From Promethearchaeota archaeon (lineage in GTDB: Archaea; Asgardarchaeota; Lokiarchaeia; Sigyniarchaeales; SOKP01), in NCBI GenBank assembly GCA_019058445.1, contig JAHPZA010000003.1:580919-644918 (forward strand): a stretch of 64,000 nt of DNA, in the 5' to 3' direction. A model generated the notes under the pieces. That model did not search any database and was not told where the DNA came from. It saw only the letters and a list, made by a program, of their open reading frames with translations. How positions within the stretch are numbered: position 1 is the first letter of the stretch; every line of letters starts with the position of its first letter. Below, piece after piece: positions 7,123-51,733 of the stretch. Made by a program: the position numbers and the translations under genes.

Positions 7123-8799
7123 TTAGGAAATTTGTGTTAGGTAATTATCATCTATAGATATTTTCAATGATTCATAGAAGATAGAGCCATATTTCTGATA
7201 AAAATCTCTCTTACTCTTCATGATAAAATCTTTATTCTTAACTTCTACGTTTCCCTTTGACCAAAATATTTTACCTTGATGATTTAAATTGATTTTATCA
7301 TTCTGTTTAATGATTTCTCCAGATTTTATTACATATTCTATATTGGATAATGAATTTCTAAAAGTTTCATGATCTTTAGAAATATCAATTTCATTAATAC
7401 TGAGATCTAAAATATTGAGATCTGCATCTGCCCCTTCGCAGAGAGATCCTTTAATATTTCCTAATCCTAATGATTTTGCTGGACTTGCACGAGTTAAAAT
7501 GATATATTCGTTAAAAGTCAATGTTTTATCGTTTTCCTGTAAAACACTGTTAGTTAGGAAATCCTTATTCATTCCATCCATAAATTTGTCTCTCGCATCT
7601 TTGCTTACTAGCCATGTGGCAATCTCTGGTACATTGTGGATATTAGCATAGTTAGGATAATTCACAGAGAATTGTAATTGCCATTTATTCTCTACGTTAA
7701 GCGCTATGTCAATCCCATTTGCCCATAGAATGCAATCTTGAATATTTTTTTTATCAAATTTTCTTAATATTGCAAAAACATCGCCCTCAAATTCTACTGC
7801 TGAGCTAATAAGAGTTTTCTCATTCTCACTTCCATTGCCTTTCAATATAGATTTAATTAATCTTCGATCTGATGTAATGCAAGGATTTATTTTATCAAAT
7901 CCTACAAATCCTAAGTCAACATCAATAGTCTTATTTTCATTTAAATTATTAATCAATTCACTGTTATTCCCATCTATATTATAAGCACATGCATGAGCCA
8001 TATGAAAGATTTGTGAGCGCTGTAATTCAGGATCTAAATGGGAGTTAGGTTCCAAGCTTAATGATTTTACCTTATCTATTATTGTAAACAAATTATTTTT
8101 TGCTTTAATTTGTTCATACCCTTCTATATGAGCATGTACAGAATGAGGCATTCCCAATTGTTCATTAGCTTTTGTTAAATTTTCATATACATCCAAAGCA
8201 GAAAAATTATATAATCTCCCCTTAGCCGATACATCTTTTCTTAGGGTTTTAAAATTCCAGCTCTCAGATTCGAAAGGATTATATACTTTAAATCCGAATC
8301 CTTTGGTCATTAATAGTAGATCTGATAAAAACACCGCAAGATTATCTATCTTTCCTTTTTGATATTCTAATTCTAATGGCCAGAGGTTACTTACATTCAA
8401 TAACATAGCTTTATCTAAAACGGGTAAACTCTTAAAATTAAAGATAGTGTACCTTGCTAAAGAGGGAAAGACGTTCGCTTCAAGAATGAATGTATAACCG
8501 TTAGCGATATAAGATCTGGCAATGTAATCCAATGTTAAGCCATTCCATATTTCTTTAAATTCAGTGTTATTCGCTCCAATTAGCCGAGCCCAGTTAACTT
8601 GTTGCGAAGCAAAATGGCCATGAATATCTAAAGCACCGGGTATAACAGTTTTATTATTCGCATCAATTATTTTAATATTGTTCTGATTTGAAAATTTTTC
8701 TACGATTTTTCCATCTTGAATAAGGATATCCTTTATTTCTCCCTCAATTTTCCCTAAGGGATCAAATATTAATCCATTTTTAATCAATGTTTTTGGCAT
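7123..8799 (-). CDS. fwdA: Formylmethanofuran dehydrogenase subunit A-like amidohydrolase (divergent)
   Basis: DIHGH, YIANGYT, GFKVYNP, PHSVHAH, TRASPAKSLGL..KGSL..GADAD; operonic with fwdD/B-like genes. Confidence 0.8.
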   Translation of the reverse strand: MPKTLIKNGLIFDPLGKIEGEIKDILIQDGKIVEKFSNQNNIKIIDANNKTVIPGALDIHGHFASQQVNWARLIGANNTEFKEIWNGLTLDYIARSYIANGYTFILEANVFPSLARYTIFNFKSLPVLDKAMLLNVSNLWPLELEYQKGKIDNLAVFLSDLLLMTKGFGFKVYNPFESESWNFKTLRKDVSAKGRLYNFSALDVYENLTKANEQLGMPHSVHAHIEGYEQIKAKNNLFTIIDKVKSLSLEPNSHLDPELQRSQIFHMAHACAYNIDGNNSELINNLNENKTIDVDLGFVGFDKINPCITSDRRLIKSILKGNGSENEKTLISSAVEFEGDVFAILRKFDKKNIQDCILWANGIDIALNVENKWQLQFSVNYPNYANIHNVPEIATWLVSKDARDKFMDGMNKDFLTNSVLQENDKTLTFNEYIILTRASPAKSLGLGNIKGSLCEGADADLNILDLSINEIDISKDHETFRNSLSNIEYVIKSGEIIKQNDKINLNHQGKIFWSKGNVEVKNKDFIMKSKRDFYQKYGSIFYESLKISIDDNYLTQIS

Positions 8800-8810
8800 A
8801 GTTTCAGCAC

Positions 8811-9191
8811 CTATTTTTCTTTACTTTTAATAGATTTTAAGATTTGATTAAAGCTAGTTATAGGATCTCTTGTTGCTTCTACATTTACAACTATATTCTT
8901 ATATTTAATGTCATTAGATTCACAGCTAGTAAGTTGATTAGCCCAAATTGAGATAGGCATGAGAATGGTCCCTTGAGGTATATTTTCATCTTTCTCAACT
9001 CGTAAAATGACATCTCCATTGTTATTGGTCACTTTTATATGTAAACTTGAAGTTAAATTCAATTTATCAAAATCTTTCGGATTAAGCATTCCGATTGGAA
9101 TATTTTCTTCCAAGGATTTTTCATCTCCAAACGCAAGCTCACGAGCTTGGTCATGATCAAACATTCTCATAGTATTTAATATCATATCCAT
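8811..9191 (-). CDS. fwdD: FwdD-like molybdopterin dinucleotide-binding subunit (divergent)
   Basis: 126 aa, LNPKD..KL, VTNNNGDV, GTILMPISIWAN; lies between the A- and B-like genes. Confidence 0.78.
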   Translation of the reverse strand: MDMILNTMRMFDHDQARELAFGDEKSLEENIPIGMLNPKDFDKLNLTSSLHIKVTNNNGDVILRVEKDENIPQGTILMPISIWANQLTSCESNDIKYKNIVVNVEATRDPITSFNQILKSIKSKEK

Positions 9192-9194
9192 TAT

Positions 9195-10505
9195 TCAATC
9201 ACCACCTCCACCTGGATTTATTTTATTAATGATTTTTATTAATAATTCCTCATCAGAAGGTATATTACTTGGAGGATTAAGAATTGTCTTGAGTTCAATC
9301 GGAACTTGATCTAGCCTAATTGCAGTTCCTGAAGTTTCAATTCCCGTAATTGCCGTTGGTAATACTATATCGGCAAGGTACGTAGTGGCAGATTTTTTAT
9401 TATCTATCACAATGATTGGTTTTTTTGCTAGTTTCTGACTCAAATTGCGAGGTAGATGAGAGATAGGATCGGTACCAACGATAATTGAACAGTCAAAATC
9501 TTCGCTATCAATTTTTGAGACGATATTTTGCTCAGAATTAACAAGCTGATGATTCTTAAACTGTAGCCCACCGATTTTACCACATATTGATAAGGATACG
9601 TGATCAAATCCCGCCATATTAAAATGGCCTCCCATCATTATTAAAGAGACTCGTCCTTTTTCTTGTTTGCTATTTATCATTTGTATTAATTCCAACAATT
9701 CGCGAATGATGTTCGACTCAGTTTGAGGTCGTAAAAGACCTTGTCCTAGAATTATAACCCCATTTTCAGCTTCGGATAAGTGTAATAATATTCTTTTTAG
9801 ATCGTCTCTATCGAGACCCGCAACTCCCTCTGAGGAGATGGTATTAGCAACACAACATTCTTCTTTTAATACTCGAATCAATTCCAAGTCCTTATTAGGC
9901 TGGATTTGTAAGGCCAAATCTCGGACACCCATTACATTAAAAGAGGCGGTCTTAACAGGATCGATTATAATAAGGGTTCTGATCTCACGTCCAGTCATTC
10001 GAAATTTACCTCTTGAAAAAAGAATTTTATTTAACAAACGAGGGATTGATTCTGCTGCATTGGCACCCCATAAAACTATTAAATCAGCTTTATTAATGAT
10101 CTCAGTATTAGTTGTTAAGGTTAGTCCCGTGCTTTGAGCAATGTTTAATACTTTTCCTTGACATATTGAGGAATTTGAATCAATAAAGCCATCAATTGCT
10201 TTTGCTAATTCGATTCCTTTTAATTGAGCTTCACAAGTCACATTAGAGAATCCATATAGTAGGGGTTTGGAGGAATTCTTAATGACTTCTACCGTTTTTT
10301 CTAATGCATCCTCCCAAGAGCATTTTTCTAAAACTTCATTTTTTTTTATCAGAGGATTTAAAATTCGATTGTTTGAGGTAAGTTGATCAAATCGTTCTTT
10401 ACCTTTTAAACAAGCTCCTAAAACCTCATCTATAAATAATCCATCACTTCTTACAATAATATCATCACAAAGTAAAGAACATCCCGCACAAGGAACTCTC
10501 TTCAT
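9195..10505 (-). CDS. fwdB: FwdB-like subunit (divergent)
   Basis: CAGCSLLCDD...C 4Fe-4S motif, PLLYG, ADLIVLWG.N, GHFN, GTDP, GIETSGTA.RLD.VP. Confidence 0.82.
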   Translation of the reverse strand: MKRVPCAGCSLLCDDIIVRSDGLFIDEVLGACLKGKERFDQLTSNNRILNPLIKKNEVLEKCSWEDALEKTVEVIKNSSKPLLYGFSNVTCEAQLKGIELAKAIDGFIDSNSSICQGKVLNIAQSTGLTLTTNTEIINKADLIVLWGANAAESIPRLLNKILFSRGKFRMTGREIRTLIIIDPVKTASFNVMGVRDLALQIQPNKDLELIRVLKEECCVANTISSEGVAGLDRDDLKRILLHLSEAENGVIILGQGLLRPQTESNIIRELLELIQMINSKQEKGRVSLIMMGGHFNMAGFDHVSLSICGKIGGLQFKNHQLVNSEQNIVSKIDSEDFDCSIIVGTDPISHLPRNLSQKLAKKPIIVIDNKKSATTYLADIVLPTAITGIETSGTAIRLDQVPIELKTILNPPSNIPSDEELLIKIINKINPGGGGD

Positions 10506-38153: not shown

Positions 38154-38594
38154 TTAATCAATTTTTAATGTATTTATATCATATTCTATTTTTTCTCCCC
38201 TTCCTATAATTTCAGCTAAATCTTTCATAAATGAATTCATTAGGAACGTTTTTGTCTGTTCAGAAGCATTATAATTTCCGATGAATTTCTCAATAAACAA
38301 GTTGATTATCTTTTTATGAGTTTCGAAAACTTTTTTCTGTTTAATATTTTTTTCGCATTTTAAAATAAATTCAATACCAGTGAGCTTATCCTTAGTGAGA
38401 AAAAATTTACTATTTCCCAAATCAATTATTTTCACTTCTTCTTCTCCAATTTTTTGAGCGATTGTTTGTAAAGTCGTAAAAAAATTAGATAAATAATCTG
38501 GGTCTAGCTCCTTGGAACTTGGAAGAGTATTCTCTTGTAAATAAATTAGTTCTCCTCTGTGGTTAAGAATATATAATCCAACTACATCAGACAT
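38154..38594 (-). CDS. Longin-like domain protein
   Basis: GLYILNHRGELIY hairpin, helix LSNFFTTLQTIA, three strands, C-terminal helices. Confidence 0.65.
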   Translation of the reverse strand: MSDVVGLYILNHRGELIYLQENTLPSSKELDPDYLSNFFTTLQTIAQKIGEEEVKIIDLGNSKFFLTKDKLTGIEFILKCEKNIKQKKVFETHKKIINLFIEKFIGNYNASEQTKTFLMNSFMKDLAEIIGRGEKIEYDINTLKID

Positions 38595-39771: not shown

Positions 39772-40122
39772 ATGAGTAAAGCAGATATTGAGAAAAAATT
39801 AGCACAACTAATGGATACCGTTCCAGAGTGCGAAGGGTTAATCGCAGCAGATTTAGATGGTAAGGTGATTGTAGGGCAGACAATTACAGAAATGGATCAT
39901 GCGAAAATTGCAAAATCCTGTGTATCAATCATTAAAGATTCCAATACCTTAGGGAACAATATTGACAAGGGATCTCTGAGAAATACCACAATTGAGCTAG
40001 AAGAGGGTTTTGCAGTATTAGTAGGCTCAGATAAAACGGTGTTAATTGCTGTAGCCGGAATTGATGGAAAAGCATCACTTGGGCTTCTAAAACGAAATTT
40101 AATAAGTATTTCTAAGTTATAA
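39772..40122 (+). CDS. Roadblock/LAMTOR/MglB-like protein
   Basis: EGLIAADLDGKVI, IELEEG, LIAVA...ASLGLL; 116 aa. Confidence 0.85.
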   Translation: MSKADIEKKLAQLMDTVPECEGLIAADLDGKVIVGQTITEMDHAKIAKSCVSIIKDSNTLGNNIDKGSLRNTTIELEEGFAVLVGSDKTVLIAVAGIDGKASLGLLKRNLISISKL

Positions 40123-40226: not shown

Positions 40227-43200
40227 TTATTTCTTATCGTCTAACCCTTCTTCTTCCAGAAGCGAATCTAAATCAGCAGTTTTTTTCGGTTTGGCTTTTT
40301 TTGGCTCTTCTTTCTTTTTTCTGAGGGCTTTTTTCGGTTTGGATTTTTTGTCTTTTTTGGTTATTTTTAGTCTCTTTTTTTTCTTTTTCTTTTGTTCAAC
40401 CATTTGCCTTGTTGAGATTCGCCCTTTTTTGGGCTTCTTTTTTTTTTTCGGTTCTTTTATAACTTTTTTTGGAGGTAATTGTAATTCCACCTTTTCAGGA
40501 GGGTGTTCCACAGGAGATTCTTCAGCTTTTTCAATAGGTTCTTCCTCAGCTTCAAGCTCCTCTTCTAATAGTTCATCCAAATCAACCGTCTTTTTTGCTT
40601 CAAGCTCCTCTATATCTTCTTCTTTCTCTTTAACTTCAGGAGGTTCAAGTTTTAATTCAGAAACCTTCACATACTTTCCTCTCCTTGGACGCTTCTTTTC
40701 AACTTCTTTAACTTGTTTCTCAAGCTTTTTCTTAGTTGATCGATAATAAAAAACTGTAATCACACCAATAAGTGCAATGAATGCTAAAATGAAATACATG
40801 AAATAGCCAATAAAATAATCAAATAATGGTTTATGAGCAACATCCAAATCAATCGTCATGTGAGCTATTATTATCTCTCCTGAAACAATATTTTGGGCAG
40901 TTATTGTTATTTCTACATCCAATTCATCTGAGTCGATATCTCCTGCATCCAATTCGATGGTAATTGTTGTGGATTCTCCTGATATAAGGCGATCCAAAAT
41001 GGTATTATCTTCTCCTTTAATTTCATAATCAACACTATTTTCATCAATTTCTATATCTATTTCAAGAATTTGTAAAATTGAATTTCCAGTATTCCTTAAA
41101 CCTACTTTTATGATAGATATGGTATTTGTATAAATAAAAGACTCATCTTCCTCACTACTTAACCGTATACTATTAGTTTGTACAATAATATCAATATCAA
41201 GATTTTGACTCCCATTTAGAGTAATTGTATCTCCGAACCAAACCAAACGAAATAATTTACTTACCTCTGCATTGATTTGTTTAAGTGAAGAATCTATTTT
41301 TAGATTAATATAGCCATTTGGACCTGTTAAGCCAGAGGTTATATTTATCCATGAATCTCCATCATAATATTGACAATATACTTTTTTATTAGATAAAGAA
41401 ATATCGAATTCTGTTGCTAAATTCGCGCTAATAATAAAAGTTTTTCCCTCAATAGGGGTTTCTGGATTTATCGTGATATTCCAAAATTTAGTAGGGCTTT
41501 TCAATCCTATAGTAAGGTTAACTGAATGATAAATACTTATATAATCTTTATTTATAACGTTAGCAACAAAAGTACAATTTTCCGGTAGATAGGTACACTT
41601 GTCTTTCTCAAAATATTGCAAAATAGCACGACTAGATCCTGGTTTCTTTAAAGCTATAATATATCCTTCGTAAGTCTCCTCTTTCTCTGGTATGAGTAAT
41701 GAATATTCATCACTTACATAAGTGCCCGCATGATTATCTTCAATATATACATCAAGAATTGTTTTCACACCACCCTGTCGAATGGGAGCATTTATACCGT
41801 CCCAAGTTAAATCATTTTCAATCGAAGGTACTGTTAAATTAACACTAAATGTTTTTGTATCGCCAGATTGTCCGAAGGATTTTAAATTATGCGTAATAGA
41901 AGTACTACTATCTATAATCCATTCCTCATTTTGGTATGAAACTAGCTTTACTTCAATTCTTACATCGAGATCATATCCAAAAAGGTCTCTATTTTGGATT
42001 GTGGCCTTAATTTGAATTTCTTCTTCTGGATTAAGAATTGTCTCATTTTGCATGAAATTATTGAGATAAACATCGAATTCATATCCCGTATAATCTTTTG
42101 TATATGTGAAAATTCCATCATCAATAGAAATTGAAGTATTTACCGGATAAAATCCGGGATTATATTTCCCCGTTGTCTCATTTACTATGCCTATTAACAT
42201 CTGAGCATCATAGGGATAACCTTTAGAATTATTGAGCTGTACCGTACCGGCAAGCAAATATTTATCCGCGATATTATCAAAAGTACAATTTTCTAGGACT
42301 AATTCATAGGAATCTATATATATTGGTATTTTATTGCATCCCACAATAGAATCATTTGTCCAAAAATACCCTAAATAATATGTTCCTTGAACGGGAATAT
42401 CCTGAGTAATATTATAAATTGTTTGATGATTAAAATCATAAAAAAGAAGAGTTTCATCTTTTGATAAATTGCCGTTTGTATATTCAAGATTATTTATTAG
42501 AGTTCCATTTGGATAATATAATGATACATTAACAAAACCGCTCTTTGGTGCTAAGTTATTAGGACCTTGAATATCGGCGCGAATTGAAATATTATCTCCA
42601 AACATGAAACCATTGGATTCCCATAGGATTCCTTTGTAATTAATATAACTATGCATTCCGCTATCTTTTATTGCATTAAACCCCGTTAAATAAAGCGAAT
42701 AAGTTCCATTATATTCCGTTCTTTCGGAAAGTGAAGTGTTAATTATGCTTGTAGATACAATAACTCTTAAGTATCCCGGCATATTTGGCATCAACGATTC
42801 ACTGGTTTGAGGGAATATTTCAGTACCGCCTGGGGTAGTTAAATTATGAGCGGTATAATAATTAGGATATATAAACCAAAGTTGAGTAAAGTTCCACTTA
42901 TAAGCATTAAATTTATCTAGATCTAAGGTGTAATTAAAGACCCATTCTGGATCATAGTCATAATTTGCATTGTAATAAGTTGTAGCATTTTCAACTCTAT
43001 AGGCAATCGCAGTATAATTTACATCAAATTTGAAACCTTTAATATATGTCATATTCCATGTTAGATTTACCCGGAAATTATTTAATGCATTTATTTTGAT
43101 TGGATTAGCAAAACTATAGTTCCATATTCCAAATCCCCATTCAAGATTTGGACTATCACTATATTCGATTTTAAAATTATTTAAATATTCTTCATTTTCA

Positions 43201-44699
43201 ACTTGTAATGTTTTTTGAGTATCAATTTCAAAATCGGATGGCATATAAGCTCTTGTTACATTCAATTTAAAAAGATGAGCATCTAAATATATGGTATTAA
43301 GAGCTCGAGTATTTAACTTACTTCTTGCTATATTCCATGAATTTCCATTATCTTCTGAGATTTCTATTTGATGGTCCACCTCATTGTCTCCATAACCTCC
43401 AGTATGAAGAGTAACTAAACTATAAACCCCGCTCGAAACATTTGATTTAATCACAATATAGTAAATGGATCCGTTTAAATTATTAGTATTAGCTGTATCA
43501 AATTCAAAATAAGTTAAATCATCATCGTGGTAGCTATTGAAATCTAATTGTATCGAATCTAACAACTGGTATAAATCTGGCTCAATGAGTAAATTAGTCC
43601 TTGCCAGATTGTTTTTGTTATCAGAGTTAATAGTATCATTTGCTCGATAGAGAGTTATGTTTAAGTGACCAAACCTTGCTAGATCCAAGTCTAGAGTTCT
43701 TATCCACGCATGAAACCCATTTACTGTTGAATTATATCCTTTTAAATCAAATTCTAAGGCTATCCAATTATCATTTGTTATTGGCAATTCTAAAAGAACA
43801 AATGCGTATACATTGAATTCATTCACTGTTACGTTGAAAATCTTATCTAGTTCACCTGATCTATCAAACAAGAATTGAAATAGTACGCAGTCTGATTCAT
43901 TAATGAAACCTAGATTTTCATTAATAATTTTCAGATCTTCAATATTAAATGGACCTTGAGTATGATTGTATCTAAATGTAGTTGTTACATTTTTCCATAT
44001 TTTACTAGTAGAGTTTAACCATTTCATGTAAACAGTAACATCTACGCTTTTATTAAGATTAAATTCAAAATCTAGGTTAAACCCACCAATGTTACTTCTA
44101 TTAAATGGTAAATCTATACTTGGACTGGCATCAGAAAAATTTGCACATATCGTAAGGTTTACAATCCCATTAGCAGAAGAAGTTATATTCCAAAATGTAC
44201 TAGAACTAGATGTTAAATCATCTATTCCTTTACCTACTTCACCTATTCCCTCTTTAACTATTGCAGACGAATCATCTCGTACAAAACCATATTGTTCAAA
44301 AAAGGAACTACTTGGATTTAACGCGCTATCATCTTCTATGATATATTCAGTGGTATAATTATTATTGAACTCAAATATAAAATCTCCAGAATCGAGATAC
44401 ATATTGTCTGCGGGAGCAGGAATTTCAAAATATCCATTTTCATTATCCATAGTGCGAGACTGATTTTTCATATAAGTTCTAACTGTTTGGTTAACCCCTT
44501 GACCAGTTATATCGCTTGTCAAGTTATATGTAGCACTCTTTGGATAGTTGGTGTTCTCCTCATGAAAGGGAACAGTAGAATTTTTTGTATCCATTAGTGG
44601 ATTATCCCCGGTAAAGGTGGCAATATTTGAAAAAAGTATTAAAATTAAGAGAGTACTTACTAGTACTATTCCTTTGACTTTGATTTTGTGCTGAATCAA
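40227..44699 (-). CDS. Large type I membrane surface glycoprotein with charged cytoplasmic tail
   Basis: N-terminal signal segment, many N-x-S/T sites, beta-rich body, one C-terminal TM, ~165-aa E/K-rich tail. Confidence 0.82.
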   Translation of the reverse strand: MIQHKIKVKGIVLVSTLLILILFSNIATFTGDNPLMDTKNSTVPFHEENTNYPKSATYNLTSDITGQGVNQTVRTYMKNQSRTMDNENGYFEIPAPADNMYLDSGDFIFEFNNNYTTEYIIEDDSALNPSSSFFEQYGFVRDDSSAIVKEGIGEVGKGIDDLTSSSSTFWNITSSANGIVNLTICANFSDASPSIDLPFNRSNIGGFNLDFEFNLNKSVDVTVYMKWLNSTSKIWKNVTTTFRYNHTQGPFNIEDLKIINENLGFINESDCVLFQFLFDRSGELDKIFNVTVNEFNVYAFVLLELPITNDNWIALEFDLKGYNSTVNGFHAWIRTLDLDLARFGHLNITLYRANDTINSDNKNNLARTNLLIEPDLYQLLDSIQLDFNSYHDDDLTYFEFDTANTNNLNGSIYYIVIKSNVSSGVYSLVTLHTGGYGDNEVDHQIEISEDNGNSWNIARSKLNTRALNTIYLDAHLFKLNVTRAYMPSDFEIDTQKTLQVENEEYLNNFKIEYSDSPNLEWGFGIWNYSFANPIKINALNNFRVNLTWNMTYIKGFKFDVNYTAIAYRVENATTYYNANYDYDPEWVFNYTLDLDKFNAYKWNFTQLWFIYPNYYTAHNLTTPGGTEIFPQTSESLMPNMPGYLRVIVSTSIINTSLSERTEYNGTYSLYLTGFNAIKDSGMHSYINYKGILWESNGFMFGDNISIRADIQGPNNLAPKSGFVNVSLYYPNGTLINNLEYTNGNLSKDETLLFYDFNHQTIYNITQDIPVQGTYYLGYFWTNDSIVGCNKIPIYIDSYELVLENCTFDNIADKYLLAGTVQLNNSKGYPYDAQMLIGIVNETTGKYNPGFYPVNTSISIDDGIFTYTKDYTGYEFDVYLNNFMQNETILNPEEEIQIKATIQNRDLFGYDLDVRIEVKLVSYQNEEWIIDSSTSITHNLKSFGQSGDTKTFSVNLTVPSIENDLTWDGINAPIRQGGVKTILDVYIEDNHAGTYVSDEYSLLIPEKEETYEGYIIALKKPGSSRAILQYFEKDKCTYLPENCTFVANVINKDYISIYHSVNLTIGLKSPTKFWNITINPETPIEGKTFIISANLATEFDISLSNKKVYCQYYDGDSWINITSGLTGPNGYINLKIDSSLKQINAEVSKLFRLVWFGDTITLNGSQNLDIDIIVQTNSIRLSSEEDESFIYTNTISIIKVGLRNTGNSILQILEIDIEIDENSVDYEIKGEDNTILDRLISGESTTITIELDAGDIDSDELDVEITITAQNIVSGEIIIAHMTIDLDVAHKPLFDYFIGYFMYFILAFIALIGVITVFYYRSTKKKLEKQVKEVEKKRPRRGKYVKVSELKLEPPEVKEKEEDIEELEAKKTVDLDELLEEELEAEEEPIEKAEESPVEHPPEKVELQLPPKKVIKEPKKKKKPKKGRISTRQMVEQKKKKKKRLKITKKDKKSKPKKALRKKKEEPKKAKPKKTADLDSLLEEEGLDDKK

Positions 44700-44870: not shown

Positions 44871-46220
44871 ATGAGTGAAGAATTAATTCTTAATAGAATA
44901 GAAAGCAATAGGGAAGAATATATTGAATTTTTTAGAGAATTAATCAAAACAAAATCATATAATCCCCCGGGCAACGAAAAAAATGTTGCGCTAAAGATAG
45001 AAGAATTCTTAAAAAAGTCAAACATCAAATGCGATATCTTTCCTTTTGGAGATAATCGTGCCAATTTAATTGCATATTTAAATGATCAGTTTGAAGGTAA
45101 AAATTTGCTGTATAATGGACATATGGATGTTGTTCCTCCAGGGAATGTTGATGATTGGAAATATCCTCCCCTTTCAGCAACTATAAAAAGGAAAAAATTT
45201 ATTTACGGTAGAGGCACTGCCGATATGAAAGGAGGTGTAGCGGCAATGGCTATAGCTTTAAAAATTTTGAAAGATTTAGAGATTGAATTATCTGGAAATT
45301 TAATTTTTAACGCAGTCGCTGATGAAGAAACAGGAGGGAAGTTTGGGACAGGATGGTGTTTAGAAAATGTGTTAGAATCAATTAAATGCGACTTTGCTAT
45401 TGTAGGTGAGACTTCAAATTATAAACCATTATCACATGCCATTGTTTTAGGTGAAAAAGGGCGTGTACAACTTAAAATAATTACTAAAGGGATATCTGGT
45501 CATGCTTCTGTACCATTTCTAGGGAAAAATGCTATTTACATGATGAGCGATTTAATGCAAAACTTAGATAAATTGGATGATTTAATGCCGAAAATTAAAC
45601 CTCCTATCTCATTAGAAAAACTTAAAACACTTTTACGTGCCTCTTTTCCAAATCAAGAAAGTTTTGAGCGTGTCTATAAGGAGCAACCACTCTTAGCTAA
45701 CGTATCTAAAGCACTTACCCAGTTCACTAAAATAGTCACAATGATTAAAGCAGGAATAAAAGAAAATGTGATCCCAGATCATTGTGAAGCAATAATGGAC
45801 TTTAGATTACTTCCCGGGCAAACTAAAGAAATGGTTCTTGATGCATTAAGGCAATTAATTACAGATATTGGATATGAAGTGAAGGATGAACCAACAGGCC
45901 ATCCAGATGAGTATTTTTTCTATTTAGAAGTAGAAGGTGCTGGTAAACCGTCATATTGGAGTGACTGGGAAAATTCCGAAGATTTAAAGATTTTCTATGA
46001 TATTGTTGAGAAATGTTATAATAAAAAACCGTTTTATTTCTTATTACCAGCTTCAGCAGATGTCAGCTATTTACGAAATACTAATTATTGCAAAAACTCA
46101 ATTATTTTTGGTCCTGGAGTCGGAACTACGGCCCATTCTGTGGATGAATATGTTGAAATCGAAGATTTCATTAACGCGATAAAGGTTTACACCCTTTATG
46201 CTTACAATTTCTTGAAATAA
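44871..46220 (+). CDS. M20 family metallopeptidase (ArgE/DapE-like)
   Basis: NGHMDVVP, GRGTADMKGG, ADEETGG, GHAS, AHSVDE. Confidence 0.92.
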   Translation: MSEELILNRIESNREEYIEFFRELIKTKSYNPPGNEKNVALKIEEFLKKSNIKCDIFPFGDNRANLIAYLNDQFEGKNLLYNGHMDVVPPGNVDDWKYPPLSATIKRKKFIYGRGTADMKGGVAAMAIALKILKDLEIELSGNLIFNAVADEETGGKFGTGWCLENVLESIKCDFAIVGETSNYKPLSHAIVLGEKGRVQLKIITKGISGHASVPFLGKNAIYMMSDLMQNLDKLDDLMPKIKPPISLEKLKTLLRASFPNQESFERVYKEQPLLANVSKALTQFTKIVTMIKAGIKENVIPDHCEAIMDFRLLPGQTKEMVLDALRQLITDIGYEVKDEPTGHPDEYFFYLEVEGAGKPSYWSDWENSEDLKIFYDIVEKCYNKKPFYFLLPASADVSYLRNTNYCKNSIIFGPGVGTTAHSVDEYVEIEDFINAIKVYTLYAYNFLK

Positions 46221-46297
46221 TGATCTTTTTTTAAAATAAATACTTATTTATTTTTTTTAAATTATTATTTCTTAAAACACCTATCGAGCAAACACAA

Positions 46298-47476
46298 ATG
46301 CATGATATCAAACTTGAAGATACTATACTTGTAATAGATACCTCGAGATCGATGCTAAGAACAGATTTGAAACCTAATAGACTCATAATTGCATTGCTGG
46401 CCGCAAAGAACTTTATTCAAACCAAATTTGCAATTGATCCTAAAGATAGGATTTCAATTGTCTGCTTTGGCAAAAATTCTCAAAAAATGACATCATTTTC
46501 TCAAGACGAAACACTTTTGATAAAAACTTTACAAGAAATTCAAGTATCTGGTAAAGGAGTTGTTCATGAAGCTATTGCTCTTTCATTACAAATTATTGTT
46601 GAAGAAATGAGAAAGCTCGGTGGAAAAGTAAATAGAATTTTCATTATAAGCGACAATAAGTTAAAAACTGATCCTGCGAGATTAGAGAAATTAATTAATG
46701 TTTCAAAAGGATTAGGCGTCTTTATTGATACCTGTCAGATAGGAAAACCGTCAGGTACAAATCAGAATATTTTAAAAAAAATTGCTCAATTAACAAACGG
46801 AGAGTATGGATATTTTACTAATGAAAAAGCTATAATAAATTCTGGGAAATCTTTTGCTTCTAAAAAGATGATTCAGCAAGCACCAGACTTCTATAGACCC
46901 CAAGTAGAAGAAAAATCACCACCGTTAGTGAGTGAAATAGCATTATCATTAAGAAGACCTAGCGTCATGGAAATTCGATTTATGATGAGGAATGGAGGAA
47001 AGGAGCAAGAAAAATGTCAAATATGTCATTCAATTAAAGCTCCTACGGGTTCAGATTTTTACACGGAAGGACGATTTTGTCCCAATTGTGATCGCCCCAT
47101 GCATTTATCGTGTGCATCAATGTGGGCAGCCAAATCTGAACACAAAGAAAACGTGTTCCGATGCCCGTTTTGCTATTTTCTATTAAAACTTCCGAAATCT
47201 GCTTCAAAATTAATGAAGGCAAAGGAGGAGGAACCTAAAAAGGTAAGCATAATTGACGATGATAACTACAAAAAAACAAGGATGATCGAAATTGATGAAA
47301 AAAATATCAGTCAAATAGATGAGTCATGCACGTATTGCCATAATATTTTTTTAGGTGAATATAAAGTATTCCAGTGCATAAAGTGCGGATCATATTATCA
47401 TGAACCTTGTCTTCAAAAAATCTTTAATGAACTCAAAGCTTGTATGTTCTGTGGAGCTGAAATTATCCTTGAATAA
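46298..47476 (+). CDS. VWA domain protein with two C-terminal RING/PHD-like Zn fingers
   Basis: IDTSRSM MIDAS; CQIC..CPNC..H..C..CPFC and CTYC..CIKC..H..C..CMFC. Confidence 0.85.
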   Translation: MHDIKLEDTILVIDTSRSMLRTDLKPNRLIIALLAAKNFIQTKFAIDPKDRISIVCFGKNSQKMTSFSQDETLLIKTLQEIQVSGKGVVHEAIALSLQIIVEEMRKLGGKVNRIFIISDNKLKTDPARLEKLINVSKGLGVFIDTCQIGKPSGTNQNILKKIAQLTNGEYGYFTNEKAIINSGKSFASKKMIQQAPDFYRPQVEEKSPPLVSEIALSLRRPSVMEIRFMMRNGGKEQEKCQICHSIKAPTGSDFYTEGRFCPNCDRPMHLSCASMWAAKSEHKENVFRCPFCYFLLKLPKSASKLMKAKEEEPKKVSIIDDDNYKKTRMIEIDEKNISQIDESCTYCHNIFLGEYKVFQCIKCGSYYHEPCLQKIFNELKACMFCGAEIILE

Positions 47477-47606: not shown

Positions 47607-49664
47607 TTGACTAAGAGTGGAAAAAGTAAAAATAAATGGATCGTAACTAGCGCTTGGCCTTACGTGAATGCTATACCTCATTTAGGAAACATGATTGGCA
47701 GTGTCCTGTCCGCGGATGTTTTTGCGAGATTTCTTAGATTAAAAGAAAATGATGTAGTCTTCGTCTCAGGTTCAGATGCTCATGGCACACCTGTCGCAGT
47801 AGCAGCTAAAAAACAAGATATTCCTGCTGAAGAATTAGCAATGAAAAATCATGCGATAATTAAGAAATTATTTGAGAGATGGAATATATCTTATGATAAC
47901 TACACTCAAACACATAATCCAACTCATATTGAATTTGTTCAAAATTTTTATCTTGACATACAAAAAAATGGATATATCTTCGAAAAAGAGATAAAATCAC
48001 TATACTGCGCACATGATAATTTATATCTTCCAGACAGATTTGTAGAGGGTATTTGTCCACATTGTAAAGATGATAGAGCACGCGGAGATCAATGTGATGC
48101 ATGTCAAAAACTATTAACGCCTCTTGAATTGATAGAACCAAAATGTGCGATTTGCGGAAAAACTCCAGAAATACGGAACACAAAACATTGGTATATGGAT
48201 TTTCCAAAATTACAGGATCGCCTTGCCGCACTAATTAAAAATAACAAAATTATCCCTCCAAATGCTAGACAAGTGTGTCTAAATAGTATTGTCGAAGGTC
48301 TTCCAGAGAGAGCAATAACCAGAGATTTGGAATGGGGTATCCCTGCTAAGTTCAAAGGTGCTGAGGAAAAAACAATTTATGTCTGGTTCGAAGCTGTTTT
48401 GGGCTATGTATCTGCTGTAAAGGAATGGGCAGAAAAAATCGTAAAGAAACCAGAACTCTTCGATTATTTTTGGAAAGATTCTAATACTAAGACAGTGTAT
48501 TTTATTGGAAAGGATAACATCATTTTCCATTTAATTGTATTTCCCGGATTGCTTTTAGCATATAATGAGAATAAAAAAAAGCAGGACCAATTAGTGCTTC
48601 CCTATAATGTTTCATCCACCGAATTTCTCATGTATGAGAATGATAAGTTCTCTAAATCTAGAAGAGTAGGTATCTGGATAGATGAAGCTTTGGAATTAGC
48701 CCCTTTAGATTATTGGAGGTTCAATTTATTATACAATAGACCAGAAAAAAGTGATACGTCCTTTTTATGGTCTGAATTTGATAATAATATTAAAACACTA
48801 AACGATAATATCGGTAATTTTATTCATAGGACGCTTACATTTATTAACAAGCAATTTAAAGGGATCATACCAAATAAAATTGAGTATGACAATATCGATA
48901 AGAAGTTCATTTCAAATCTAAATACAATTAGCGAAAGAATAGGAAAGCTTTTAGAACAATTTAAGCTTAGAAAAGCGTTAAGAGAAATAGTAACATTTGC
49001 TAAAGAAGGAAATGTGTATTTAAATGATAAAGCTCCCTGGCATTTAATTAAAGAAAATAAGGAAGCTGCGGGGAATGTTTTTAATATATGCGCACAAGCA
49101 GTTTATGCTTTTGGTGTGCTATTAGCACCATTCATTCCTGAAACTTCCGAAAAGATTTTGGATTTTTTAAACGTCTCTGAAAAATTAACTCCACTTTCAT
49201 GGGATAACATTAATGAAGATGCTTTAAAGGCAGGTCAAAAAATAAATACTCCAAAACCTCTTTTCCAAAAATTAGATATTAATGAAATGCAAGAAAATCT
49301 TGAAAAAATAAGAAAAAAGAAAGAAGGCAAAGGTGAAGTTGAATTGGTCTCATATGATGAATTTTCGAAATTAGATATAAGAGTTGCTCTAGTTGAAAAA
49401 GCAGAAAAAGTGCCGAAAGCAGATAAATTGATAAAACTGTCCATTGATTTAGGAACTGAAAAAAGAACTTTAGTAGCAGGATTGGCAGAATTTTATGATG
49501 CCAAAGATTTAGTGGGTAAAAAAATAATCATTTTAGCAAATTTAGAGCCAAGAAAACTCAGAGGAATAGAAAGTCAAGGCATGCTTTTAGCTGCTGATGA
49601 TGGTAAAAACGTAGCAATGTTAATCCCAGATAAGGATATAGCCCCTGGTTCAAAAATAAGGTAG
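47607..49664 (+). CDS. metG: Methionine--tRNA ligase
   Basis: PYVN..PHLGN, Zn knuckles, YVWFEA, KFSKS, C-terminal tRNA-binding OB domain (SQGMLLAA). Confidence 0.97.
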   Translation: MTKSGKSKNKWIVTSAWPYVNAIPHLGNMIGSVLSADVFARFLRLKENDVVFVSGSDAHGTPVAVAAKKQDIPAEELAMKNHAIIKKLFERWNISYDNYTQTHNPTHIEFVQNFYLDIQKNGYIFEKEIKSLYCAHDNLYLPDRFVEGICPHCKDDRARGDQCDACQKLLTPLELIEPKCAICGKTPEIRNTKHWYMDFPKLQDRLAALIKNNKIIPPNARQVCLNSIVEGLPERAITRDLEWGIPAKFKGAEEKTIYVWFEAVLGYVSAVKEWAEKIVKKPELFDYFWKDSNTKTVYFIGKDNIIFHLIVFPGLLLAYNENKKKQDQLVLPYNVSSTEFLMYENDKFSKSRRVGIWIDEALELAPLDYWRFNLLYNRPEKSDTSFLWSEFDNNIKTLNDNIGNFIHRTLTFINKQFKGIIPNKIEYDNIDKKFISNLNTISERIGKLLEQFKLRKALREIVTFAKEGNVYLNDKAPWHLIKENKEAAGNVFNICAQAVYAFGVLLAPFIPETSEKILDFLNVSEKLTPLSWDNINEDALKAGQKINTPKPLFQKLDINEMQENLEKIRKKKEGKGEVELVSYDEFSKLDIRVALVEKAEKVPKADKLIKLSIDLGTEKRTLVAGLAEFYDAKDLVGKKIIILANLEPRKLRGIESQGMLLAADDGKNVAMLIPDKDIAPGSKIR

Positions 49665-49665
49665 G

Positions 49666-50910
49666 TTATACTTTTAGGCTAAAGATTGGATTTAAACGAG
49701 CAATCATATCTCCTAAATCTAATTGAATTGTTTTTAATGCTATGCTTCTTCCACGATATTCAAATTGTAAATTGGTAACATCACGCACTATTTTTACTCG
49801 TTCTGTATCCGATCGTAATTCACATTCGAAATATCTTTGATCTTTATATTCCATGATACTTCTCACTTTTTTTATATCTGGAAAAGCGTATCCTCCTCCA
49901 TGAGGCAAAATATTAGCAGTTCTCAAATTTTCTAATACTTCTAGTCGCTCTCCTCTTTCAATAAAATGCATATTTCTTAAGGTGGTCTCAGATAAATTTT
50001 GTTTGCCTTTAAACAGATACGCCGCAATATCTGCTCTTAATGTTATGGGAAAAATGTTATTTCTAATTGCTTCAGAATTTATATCTGTACAATTAGTACC
50101 CAAATACATAGTGTTATAATCTTTTAAGAATTGATGAGGTTGATTACAGATAATTTCATAATTATTTCCAAATAACTTATCCGCTATAATACGTCTCTTC
50201 ATATTTGAAAACTCTAATGCCTTATTATTAAACTCTAAATATTCATCTGCTTCATTATCAATAAGAATATATTGCTTTCCAAATACGGTGGTCTCTTTTA
50301 TTGCTGTATTTCTTAATGTCTTTGATTTATCGATATAAAGTCCTATTCCATATTTATCATCTCTAAATTCTGGAGCAGAACCATGAATCATAAACATATA
50401 GGGGGGTAAATCTAAGCCAGAAAGGTTTTTCGTTTCAAAACAGTTAATAAAATGATTTGAGATTCCATAATCCCAATTTATTTGAATATTATCATAGTAT
50501 AATTCTGTAGCTTTTACTTCATCAATTCGCGTTATTATCTTATAAGCATTGGGTAATTCATCTAAACCACCTACAAGAATTCCACAATGGTTTGGCTTTA
50601 CGTTTAAAAAAATGAGTTTCTGCTTTCCATTTCCCCAATTTAATTTTCCCCCATAACCTAAACCAGAATTCCATCGAAATGCATTTCTCGAAATTGTTTC
50701 ATCTGGAGATGATATAAATAAAGCCTTCGGGTCAAAACCGTATTTCTCTTGTAAAAGATGAATCTGGGCAAGCCCATACTTCATATTTGCTTTACATAAC
50801 TTTGACGCACCATCATTTAAACCGGTAGAAAATATAAATTCTTTTGCTCTTTTTAATAATTCAATTTTTTGTAAATGGGATACTTTTTGCGTAATGCTGG
50901 TTGAGCCCAT
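49666..50910 (-). CDS. Divergent RtcB-like protein (RNA ligase fold)
   Basis: Ordered motifs PD, HCG, NHF, HGS, HQ, PHGGG and terminal LK parallel the RtcB active site. Confidence 0.7.
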   Translation of the reverse strand: MGSTSITQKVSHLQKIELLKRAKEFIFSTGLNDGASKLCKANMKYGLAQIHLLQEKYGFDPKALFISSPDETISRNAFRWNSGLGYGGKLNWGNGKQKLIFLNVKPNHCGILVGGLDELPNAYKIITRIDEVKATELYYDNIQINWDYGISNHFINCFETKNLSGLDLPPYMFMIHGSAPEFRDDKYGIGLYIDKSKTLRNTAIKETTVFGKQYILIDNEADEYLEFNNKALEFSNMKRRIIADKLFGNNYEIICNQPHQFLKDYNTMYLGTNCTDINSEAIRNNIFPITLRADIAAYLFKGKQNLSETTLRNMHFIERGERLEVLENLRTANILPHGGGYAFPDIKKVRSIMEYKDQRYFECELRSDTERVKIVRDVTNLQFEYRGRSIALKTIQLDLGDMIARLNPIFSLKV

Positions 50911-51082: not shown

Positions 51083-51733
51083 ATGGAAATAATGACCGAC
51101 AATAATATAGTGTTATTTGATTACCTCAACAATACTAAAATTAATGGGGAATTTAACGGTTCTATCATATCTAAATTTAAGGAATATGTGAATTATTTAA
51201 TTTTTTCTGATAATATTAAGATTTCTGAGGATGATGGGATTCAAATTTCCCAAGGATTAATGGTGGGATTTGAAAGAGATGTAAACAAACATCTCGCATT
51301 TTCTAAAAAGGATGATTTTATATGGAGAGATCTTGAGAATTGTCCATTGGAGTATTCAATTTTAGTTCCAAGTGTGATTATGGAACAATATGATGAGGGG
51401 CAATTCTCTGATGCGTTTCCTTTTACTATCACAATGCTTCATACGGCAGGATTATATCAAAAAGAACCTGATGGATTATATGTGGATCATTTAGATTTTT
51501 TTCAGGGTGAAATACTGAGGAATCCTGTCGGATTATTTAATAGAGGAATCTGTATTGCCGATAGAGTTGTAATAGATCATAGAGGAGATCCTGTTTTTTA
51601 TGATTCTATCTTAGTAGGTCGAAATGAAAATGATATCTTAGAAGTTAGTTATGAGCCATTAGTTAATGTGAAAATGGATTATGATGTAGTGCGTTTCATC
51701 ATAATTTTAGGAATTGAAAATCTAAAAGAATAG
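51083..51733 (+). CDS. Hypothetical protein
   Basis: 216-aa ORF with no motif I recognise. Confidence 0.6.
   Translation: MEIMTDNNIVLFDYLNNTKINGEFNGSIISKFKEYVNYLIFSDNIKISEDDGIQISQGLMVGFERDVNKHLAFSKKDDFIWRDLENCPLEYSILVPSVIMEQYDEGQFSDAFPFTITMLHTAGLYQKEPDGLYVDHLDFFQGEILRNPVGLFNRGICIADRVVIDHRGDPVFYDSILVGRNENDILEVSYEPLVNVKMDYDVVRFIIILGIENLKE

Follow-up and report, generated by a model that had tools for sequence, protein, structure and literature searches.

The whole stretch of DNA analyzed here (the window) comprises 64,000 nucleotides of a Promethearchaeota archaeon assembly (GCA_019058445.1, contig JAHPZA010000003.1; G000:C3:580919-644918 in our coordinates) and has a G+C content of ~31%. The source genome, G000, is 4.6 Mb in size, is distributed over 10 contigs, and is 92.6% complete. 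The subject of this analysis is a gene of the window (G000:C3:627216-628394) encoding a 392-amino-acid (aa) protein, in which a VWA domain is followed by two RING-like zinc fingers. Its open reading frame (ORF) starts with ATG at position 46298; no other long frame occurs at this place, and stop codons are numerous on the opposite strand. The orthologue alignment spans the protein from Met1 to its end. The gene and its modules are arranged as follows.

46298..47476, plus strand: coding sequence of the VWA + RING + RING protein (P0001), from the ORF list and translation; stop codon at 47474-47476.
46316..46852, plus strand: VWA domain, residues 7-185.
46853..47011, plus strand: linker 1, residues 186-238, with the motifs FASKK and PL..EIA..LRRP; disordered at 194-205.
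47012..47188, plus strand: RING 1, residues 239-297, variant RING with C4HC3 ligands; highest conservation of all modules.
47189..47320, plus strand: linker 2, residues 298-341, variable and acidic/basic, with one helix followed by disorder (311-324).
47321..47464, plus strand: RING 2, residues 342-389, C4HC3, with the C360-to-C382 spacing of the p44 C-terminal RING.

Searches for relatives yielded 401 homologues, the best 120 of which are ~393 aa in length and 56-94% identical to the VWA + RING + RING protein; 40 clusters (50% identity) were found at E<=1e-30 among 1.8 billion proteins. Close homologues were deposited as Promethearchaeota or Lokiarchaeota MAGs. This large set of conserved homologues indicates that 46298..47476 is not a chance ORF but a genuine gene, strongly conserved in one Asgard class. 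In the class to which the window belongs, every genome of three families has full-length matches (68/68, 7/7 and 1/1). Within its order the gene is near-universal, and genomes carry two to six family members. Full-length relatives in other Asgard classes were rejected as a candidate: the 224 genomes searched from the phylum's remaining 26 families encode no full-length member, and what matches in them are proteins with either a VWA domain or a RING alone. Among close orthologues, invariant positions make up 53% of RING 1, 38% of RING 2, 24% of the VWA domain and 5% of the second linker; those of linker 1 include A187, S188, K189, K190, P209, L210, L218, R219 and R220. A more diverse set of 32 homologues (24-70% identical) was assembled for the comparisons below.

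The earlier note on this DNA, which was made from the letters alone, had proposed an N-terminal VWA domain and two fingers for 46298-47476, and this layout was borne out by Pfam matches and conserved ligands. Each finger follows the pattern C-x2-C...C-x2-C-x4-H-x2-C...C-x2-C, which corresponds to an eight-ligand C4HC3 cross-brace. The ligands are C240, C243, C261, C264, H269, C272, C289 and C292 in the first finger, and C344, C347, C360, C363, H368, C371, C382 and C385 in the second. Across the 32 diverse homologues, 15 of these 16 residues are invariant, and C371 is retained in at least 90%. A recent internal duplication as the origin of both fingers was considered and rejected, since the BLASTP match between them covers only nine residues (E 0.048).

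The fingers were modelled as RING rather than PHD folds, in agreement with the RING-like nature suggested earlier, and the nearest solved structures are E2-binding RINGs together with the RING of p44. In a model of residues 206-392 (predicted local distance difference test, pLDDT, 75.7), which was compared with 48,161 representative chains by a procedure other than Foldseek, RING 1 is a RING closest to those of FANCL and Slx1, while the p44 extended zinc finger (eZnF) is not among the matches listed; for RING 2, the RINGs of p44 occupy the top three places. A Foldseek search with the C-terminal half alone gave no match at E<=0.001, and both fingers are collinear with p44 in a weak Foldseek match (E 0.05-0.2). 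At the sequence level, the family profile matches RING-H2 ubiquitin ligases (E3s) at 6e-8 to 1e-5 (Arkadia, 5.8e-8), Pfam zf-RING_2 is matched by 16 of the 32 members at E<=0.001 (best 6.3e-8), and single members match the Pfam models ANAPC11, FANCL_C, SLX1_C and rbx1. The RING-fold models, combined with the RING-H2 and zf-RING_2 matches, speak against PHD or other non-RING folds for the fingers.

The two RINGs differ at three positions, which we take to be contact sites for ubiquitin-conjugating enzymes (E2s) from knowledge of c-Cbl-type RINGs and not from a residue-level structural alignment. In RING 1 of the 32 diverse members, these positions are I242 (C-x-I-C; 97%), W276 (four residues past ligand 6; 100%) and P290 (C-P-x-C; 94%). 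RING 2 has Tyr, Ile/Met and Arg/Met there and is devoid of the Trp and Pro of E2-binding RINGs. The retained Ile/Trp/Pro triad suggests that RING 1 is an E2-recruiting module, as judged from sequence. By analogy with p44, RING 2 would be more like an interaction module: the C-terminal RING of p44 binds the p34 VWA domain in TFIIH (PMC6422496, PMC4094531).

A potential partner system is encoded in the same genome. The source genome has five matches to UQ_con (E2), seven ThiF/E1-like (ubiquitin-activating enzyme-like) matches and five ubiquitin-like matches; in at least three places, E1 and E2 genes are clustered with ubiquitin-like ones. E2s are encoded, for example, at G000:C10:386591-387022, C10:497610-498086 and C9:222131-222382, and ubiquitin-like proteins at C9:758188-758379 and C10:495951-496115. 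In its RING 2 region, the family profile also matches the RING proteins located in or beside two of these clusters (2.5e-8 and 1.3e-6). One cluster (G000:C10:492700-498100; L020, L026) encodes a 554-aa RING protein (zf-RING_2, 7e-8), a ubiquitin-like protein, an E1 and an E2. In another (G000:C9:221015-224400; L022, L027), E1 and E2 genes are followed by that of a seven-transmembrane protein with a C-terminal RING-like finger.

On these grounds, the reading that we favor, with a probability of roughly one half, is that the VWA + RING + RING protein serves in the cytoplasm as a RING-type ligase adaptor for ubiquitin (or a ubiquitin-like protein). In the proposed mechanism, the VWA domain would dock a substrate or partner protein via a partly retained face of the adhesion site that depends on a metal ion (MIDAS), RING 1 would recruit a charged E2 supplied by the E1/E2/ubiquitin-like system that the genome encodes, and RING 2 would serve as a second protein-protein module that binds a partner or supports RING 1. 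Ssl1, which the study protein resembles most closely in structure, has itself been proposed as an E3 (PMC4094531, citing Takagi 2005). Several observations weigh against ligase function. The study protein stays below the cut-offs of the Pfam RING/PHD models (zf-RING_2, 18.8 versus 27.3 bits; PHD, 19.4 versus 24 bits; Prok-RING_1, 18.4 versus 29.1 bits), its ligand spacing (x2, x4, x2) is of the PHD/p44 type and not the classical C-x-H-x2-H, and RING 1 carries Tyr or Phe at the position of the linchpin Arg found in many active RINGs. The gene lies in none of the ubiquitin clusters, its neighbours being genes for an M20 peptidase and methionyl-tRNA synthetase (MetRS). Moreover, the RING of p44 is a pure protein-protein interaction module (PMC6422496), so that a RING fold need not mean ligase activity.

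The last point equally suits a different function, in which the VWA domain and zinc modules form a non-catalytic scaffold that holds proteins together without ubiquitin transfer, for instance in a small-GTPase-regulated assembly (compare Sec23/24-Sar1 and the VWA-zinc modules of the ArnA/B type). Evidence bearing on this possibility comes mainly from the paralogues. A quick maximum-likelihood search resolved the family tree into three groups, namely, the clade of the study gene, a GTPase-adjoining clade, and a long-branched subfamily without MIDAS, whose members consist of a VWA domain, one RING and a C-terminal zinc ribbon. The GTPase-adjoining sister clade is 28-32% identical to the study protein. 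All seven of its sampled loci, which come from two taxonomic families, lie near a gene for a Gtr1/RagA- or Arf-like GTPase of ~400 aa; six are head-to-head with the GTPase gene, and the seventh is two genes away, with a SNAP-like tetratricopeptide repeat gene between them. The loci are listed below.

L036:6978-8189, minus strand: paralogue; 8399-9592, plus strand: GTPase (head-to-head).
L031:6767-7969, minus strand: paralogue; 8157-9386, plus strand: GTPase (head-to-head).
L037:9616-10770, plus strand: paralogue; 8251-9483, minus strand: GTPase.
L034, L035, L049 and L033: further paralogue/GTPase loci.

The sister-clade paralogue and the Rag-like GTPase thus look like a conserved gene pair. 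All four congeners of the source organism carry the GTPase-linked paralogue (E about 1e-113), whereas the source genome has neither this paralogue nor a GTPase orthologous to its partner (best match 36% identical), either through joint loss or because the region is unassembled in a genome that is 92.6% complete. In addition, the MIDAS-less paralogue of the source genome follows a small Ras/Arf-like GTPase gene. The repeated linkage in seven loci, the co-absence of both genes, the position of the MIDAS-less paralogue and the purely interacting RING of p44 all favor a scaffold. In contrast, the orthologue group of the study protein itself has no GTPase neighbour, and if there were no E2-type partner, the family-wide retention of the RING 1 triad would be difficult to account for. 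Ligase activity is also compatible with a link to a GTPase. Taken together, a purely non-catalytic scaffold appears somewhat unlikely, and the ligase adaptor remains the favored reading. If it holds, the family is a new candidate E3 of the archaeal ubiquitin system, and the repeated linkage to Rag-like GTPases would be a possible archaeal tie between small GTPases and ubiquitin-type signalling. RING-type ubiquitin ligation is a eukaryotic hallmark.

Other paralogues and relatives were observed as well. The MIDAS-less paralogue (G000:C2:19302-20120; L016:1426-2592, plus strand) is 388 aa in length and consists of a VWA domain, one C4HC3 RING, an acidic linker and a zinc ribbon; the small GTPase gene upstream of it is located at L016:720-1283 (plus strand). 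Two tandem diverged members of 447 and 482 aa, comprising the VWA domain and the region of finger 1 along with zinc-ribbon matches, are encoded at G000:C9:146607-149023 (L017, L018). In G064, a genome of another Asgard class, a 467-aa VWA protein (L046:1474-2877, minus strand) matches the family profile at 1.6e-8 and is head-to-head with a partial ORF (L046:2960-3526, plus strand) that is 33% identical to the Rag-like GTPase, suggesting that the VWA-GTPase pairing may extend beyond the class that carries the RING fusion.

The surroundings of the study gene are as follows.

44871..46220, plus strand: M20 peptidase, upstream neighbour (Pfam).
46221..46297, plus strand: AT-rich intergenic region, with a T-run following the stop codon of the upstream gene and, ~40 nt 5' of the ATG, a TATA-like stretch, as read from the sequence.
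47607..49664, plus strand: MetRS, downstream neighbour (Pfam).

The intergenic region is probably the gene's own promoter, to judge by these sequence features. The order M20 peptidase, VWA/RING gene, MetRS is kept in 12 of 12 orthologous loci of the same taxonomic family, and in a sister-family genome a diverged copy lies one gene from MetRS (L030). This conserved position gives no hint of function for the VWA/RING gene. Approximately 6 kb upstream, the window contains a sybindin/longin-like gene at 38154-38594 (minus strand; sub-threshold, 20.7 bits versus a cut-off of 25) and, at 39772-40122 (plus strand; 8e-7), one of the roadblock/LC7 type. Domains of both types are typical GTPase regulators in Asgard archaea. 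Three further ORFs, at 40227-44699 (minus strand), 49666-50910 (minus strand) and 51083-51733 (plus strand), encode proteins of 1490, 414 and 216 aa with no Pfam match at E<=0.001. An Rfam scan of the window gave no match.

Regarding the VWA domain, Pfam assigns residues 9-176 to VWA_2 (2e-14), Ssl1 (PF04056; 2.3e-12) and VWA (1e-6). The Ssl1 score of 47.6 bits exceeds both the curated cut-off of 27 and the 29.5 bits of the generic VWA model on the same protein, while the reverse order of the two models is found for the nearest bacterial VWAs. Among 301 Asgard genomes, the cut-off of the Ssl1 model is exceeded in 75, by the VWA double-RING family only; 14 control genomes gave no match to it at E<=1e-5, and 11 of 31 small bacterial VWAs match it weakly (best 1.8e-8). 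In the MIDAS, D14-x-S16-x-S18 and D119 are kept, and the Thr position is taken by the invariant Gly87, which leaves the metal site of the domain incomplete. The motifs that the earlier note had pointed to were recovered in the alignments: human p44 has D-x-S-R-[ST]-M and an identical DLKPNRL, and the alignment to Rpn10 begins at LE-x-T...D.

The relationship to p44/Ssl1 and Rpn10 that had been put forward on the basis of these motifs stood in part, as the likeness is measurable in Pfam, PDB, Foldseek and ESM Atlas comparisons, but bacterial small VWAs outscore p44. Human p44 is the best PDB sequence match of the study protein (33.6 bits), whereas small bacterial VWAs reach 45-65 bits, some of them from Patescibacteria or named Ca-activated chloride channel homologues. 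Searched against PDB sequences at E<=1e-5, the orthologue profile retrieves only p44 (8.6e-11) and Rpn10 (2.3e-10) and no BatB-type structures. A control profile built from the nearest bacterial small VWAs retrieves BatB-type structures (4e-45 to 2.5e-35), Rpn10 (3.5e-21) and p44 (6.6e-14), and scores higher on Rpn10 and p44 in absolute terms than the VWA double-RING family does. Because the bacterial VWAs score so strongly too, a shared loss of classical MIDAS traits could account in part for the shift of the family toward p44 and Rpn10. The even better match of the bacterial control to Rpn10 also implies that the likeness to Rpn10 is generic. By profile comparison (hhalign E 1.2e-36, 25% identity with small bacterial VWAs), the VWA core is clearly homologous to VWAs of the BatA/BatB type.

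An AlphaFold2 model based on the 32-sequence alignment (mean pLDDT 82.6; predicted TM score, pTM, 0.69) contains a confident VWA domain and two zinc modules, with disordered linker segments at 194-205 and 311-324 (pLDDT <50). In a Foldseek search of the PDB with this model, full-length chains of p44/Ssl1 rank first (E 8e-18 to 1e-13, ~395 aligned columns), followed by isolated Ssl1 and p44 VWA domains (TM 0.85-0.86), Rpn10 (0.80-0.84) and BatB (0.71). This ranking of a predicted model favors p44/Ssl1, and the margins are small, as p44 exceeds Rpn10 and bacterial VWAs by only 1-3 Z units. The named ESM Atlas clusters that lie closest, once the family itself is set aside, are those of eukaryotic p44 (0.91), a value to be taken as a lead only.

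Is the protein, then, a true functional counterpart of p44/Ssl1, with a VWA domain that binds and stimulates an XPD-like helicase in repair or transcription and fingers that bind a p34-like paralogue? The Ssl1 score above the cut-off, the human p44 match, the lead of full-length p44/Ssl1 chains in Foldseek, the top rank of p44 RINGs for RING 2, the nearly identical length and ligand positions, and the ESM Atlas lead would all agree with such a role. An XPD-like helicase is present in the genome, and the profile of the MIDAS-less subfamily matches yeast Tfb4 (p34) as its only PDB VWA match (E 2.1e-4, 23.8 bits), covering the second half of the domain. This match is a weak lead to a p44/p34-like pair, resting on profile similarity; Pfam Tfb4 has no match in the MIDAS-less subfamily, and the ESM Atlas returns p44, not p34, for the subfamily. 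Besides XPD, the search for p44 partner subunits covered p34, and the Pfam Tfb4 (p34) model has no match in the source genome and none in any control genome either. In place of the C4 eZnF, the middle module has the form of an eight-ligand RING, Pfam C1_4 (PF07975) has no match in the study protein or the 32 family members, and the N-terminal extension of p44 is missing. The family occurs in one Asgard class only, though XPD is widespread in archaea, and the paralogues are linked to GTPases and not to repair genes; the small structural margins likewise count against orthology. The suggestion in the earlier note of an XPD partner found no evidence; the helicase is encoded on contig 6 with no gene linkage to the VWA/RING gene. 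The protein is thus probably not a functional p44 orthologue, and we regard this role as improbable. The helicase itself (L002:262-2448, minus strand; G000:C6 around 104702-105253) contains DEAD_2, HBB and Helicase_C_2 domains, preceded by an N-terminal zinc ribbon of the RPB9/TFIIS type (Pfam Zn_ribbon_RPB9, 7e-6).

Several known systems can be compared with the VWA + RING + RING protein. In Rpn10/PSMD4, the VWA domain is followed by ubiquitin-interacting motifs (UIMs) instead of zinc fingers and binds the 19S lid, a structure that archaea, to our knowledge, do not possess. In the study protein, neither Pfam (E<=1) nor sequence reading detected a UIM or any other ubiquitin-binding family, and an Rpn10-type receptor was rejected for want of UIMs. 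An Rpn10-like proteasome-associated receptor, in which the VWA domain would sit on the proteasome or its ATPase and the fingers would handle ubiquitin-like tags, has the TM scores of Rpn10 on its side; the missing ubiquitin-binding motif, the missing lid and the better match of the bacterial control profile to Rpn10 make it highly improbable.

Small VWAs of the BatA/BatB/YfbK type share D-x-S-x-S-M...D..P-x-R-L with the study protein and give the top VWA sequence scores outside the family. They differ in keeping the MIDAS Thr (Gly87 here), in having no zinc fingers and in often carrying membrane anchors. No Pfam match to BatA was obtained, and the NCBIfam BatA model scores 22 bits versus a cut-off of 380. 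A BatA-type protein was rejected on the basis of the missing MIDAS Thr, the BatA score far below the cut-off, and the PDB-profile control, which behaves in the opposite way.

A VWA docking domain combined with a RING is also found in plants and fungi. Plant RGLG1/2 consist of a copine-type VWA domain and a RING. Both they and the fungal scaffolds Ste5/Far1, in which a RING is combined with PH and VWA domains (PMC3023161), differ from the study protein in domain order and VWA subtype, and neither group gave a sequence or structure match in any search of this analysis. With respect to the fingers, FANCL, Slx1, Listerin and Nse1, whose E3 modules are variant C4HC3 RINGs, are among the closest known systems.

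TFIIH core subunits other than the XPB and XPD helicases are generally held to be eukaryotic inventions. A full-text literature search combining Asgard or Lokiarchaeota with Ssl1, TFIIH, Rpn10, vWA or RING found no paper on the VWA double-RING family; the one report of something TFIIH-like in Asgard archaea deals with a Rad25/XPB-like helicase (PMC9258230). Sequence databases already label the family as "VWA domain-containing" with an Ssl1-like domain. The present comparisons make the family a candidate relative of the VWA lineage of p44 and Rpn10 rather than a proven TFIIH subunit. A descent of p44 from it is possible, and the family is a concrete candidate source of the p44/p34 scaffold. A more far-reaching proposal, which we consider speculative and unlikely, is that this Asgard family is the surviving stock of the lineage behind TFIIH p44 and p34 and perhaps the Rpn10 VWA domain. 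The TFIIH core would then have begun as a VWA-RING family of the ubiquitin-ligase type in which a duplication had already given rise, in archaea, to one form with MIDAS (p44-like) and one without it (p34-like).

The differences between p44/Ssl1 and the study protein are distinct. The central module is a C4 eZnF in p44 and a full C4HC3 RING here, and the last RING is C4C4 in p44 and C4HC3 here. The first VWA strand begins at residue 7, which is aligned with residue 62 of human p44, whose N-terminal extension contacts XPB (PMC6422496). Unlike p44, the family occurs in a single Asgard class and has two to six paralogues per genome, some of them GTPase-linked. On the other hand, both proteins share the module order of VWA domain, zinc module and C-terminal RING, a closely similar length (392 aa here versus 395 aa in p44), nearly the same ligand positions, and the RING 2 spacing C-x2-C-x4-[H/C]-x2-C-x10-C. 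Of prokaryotic proteins, the VWA double-RING family comes closest to TFIIH p44/Ssl1 in overall build.

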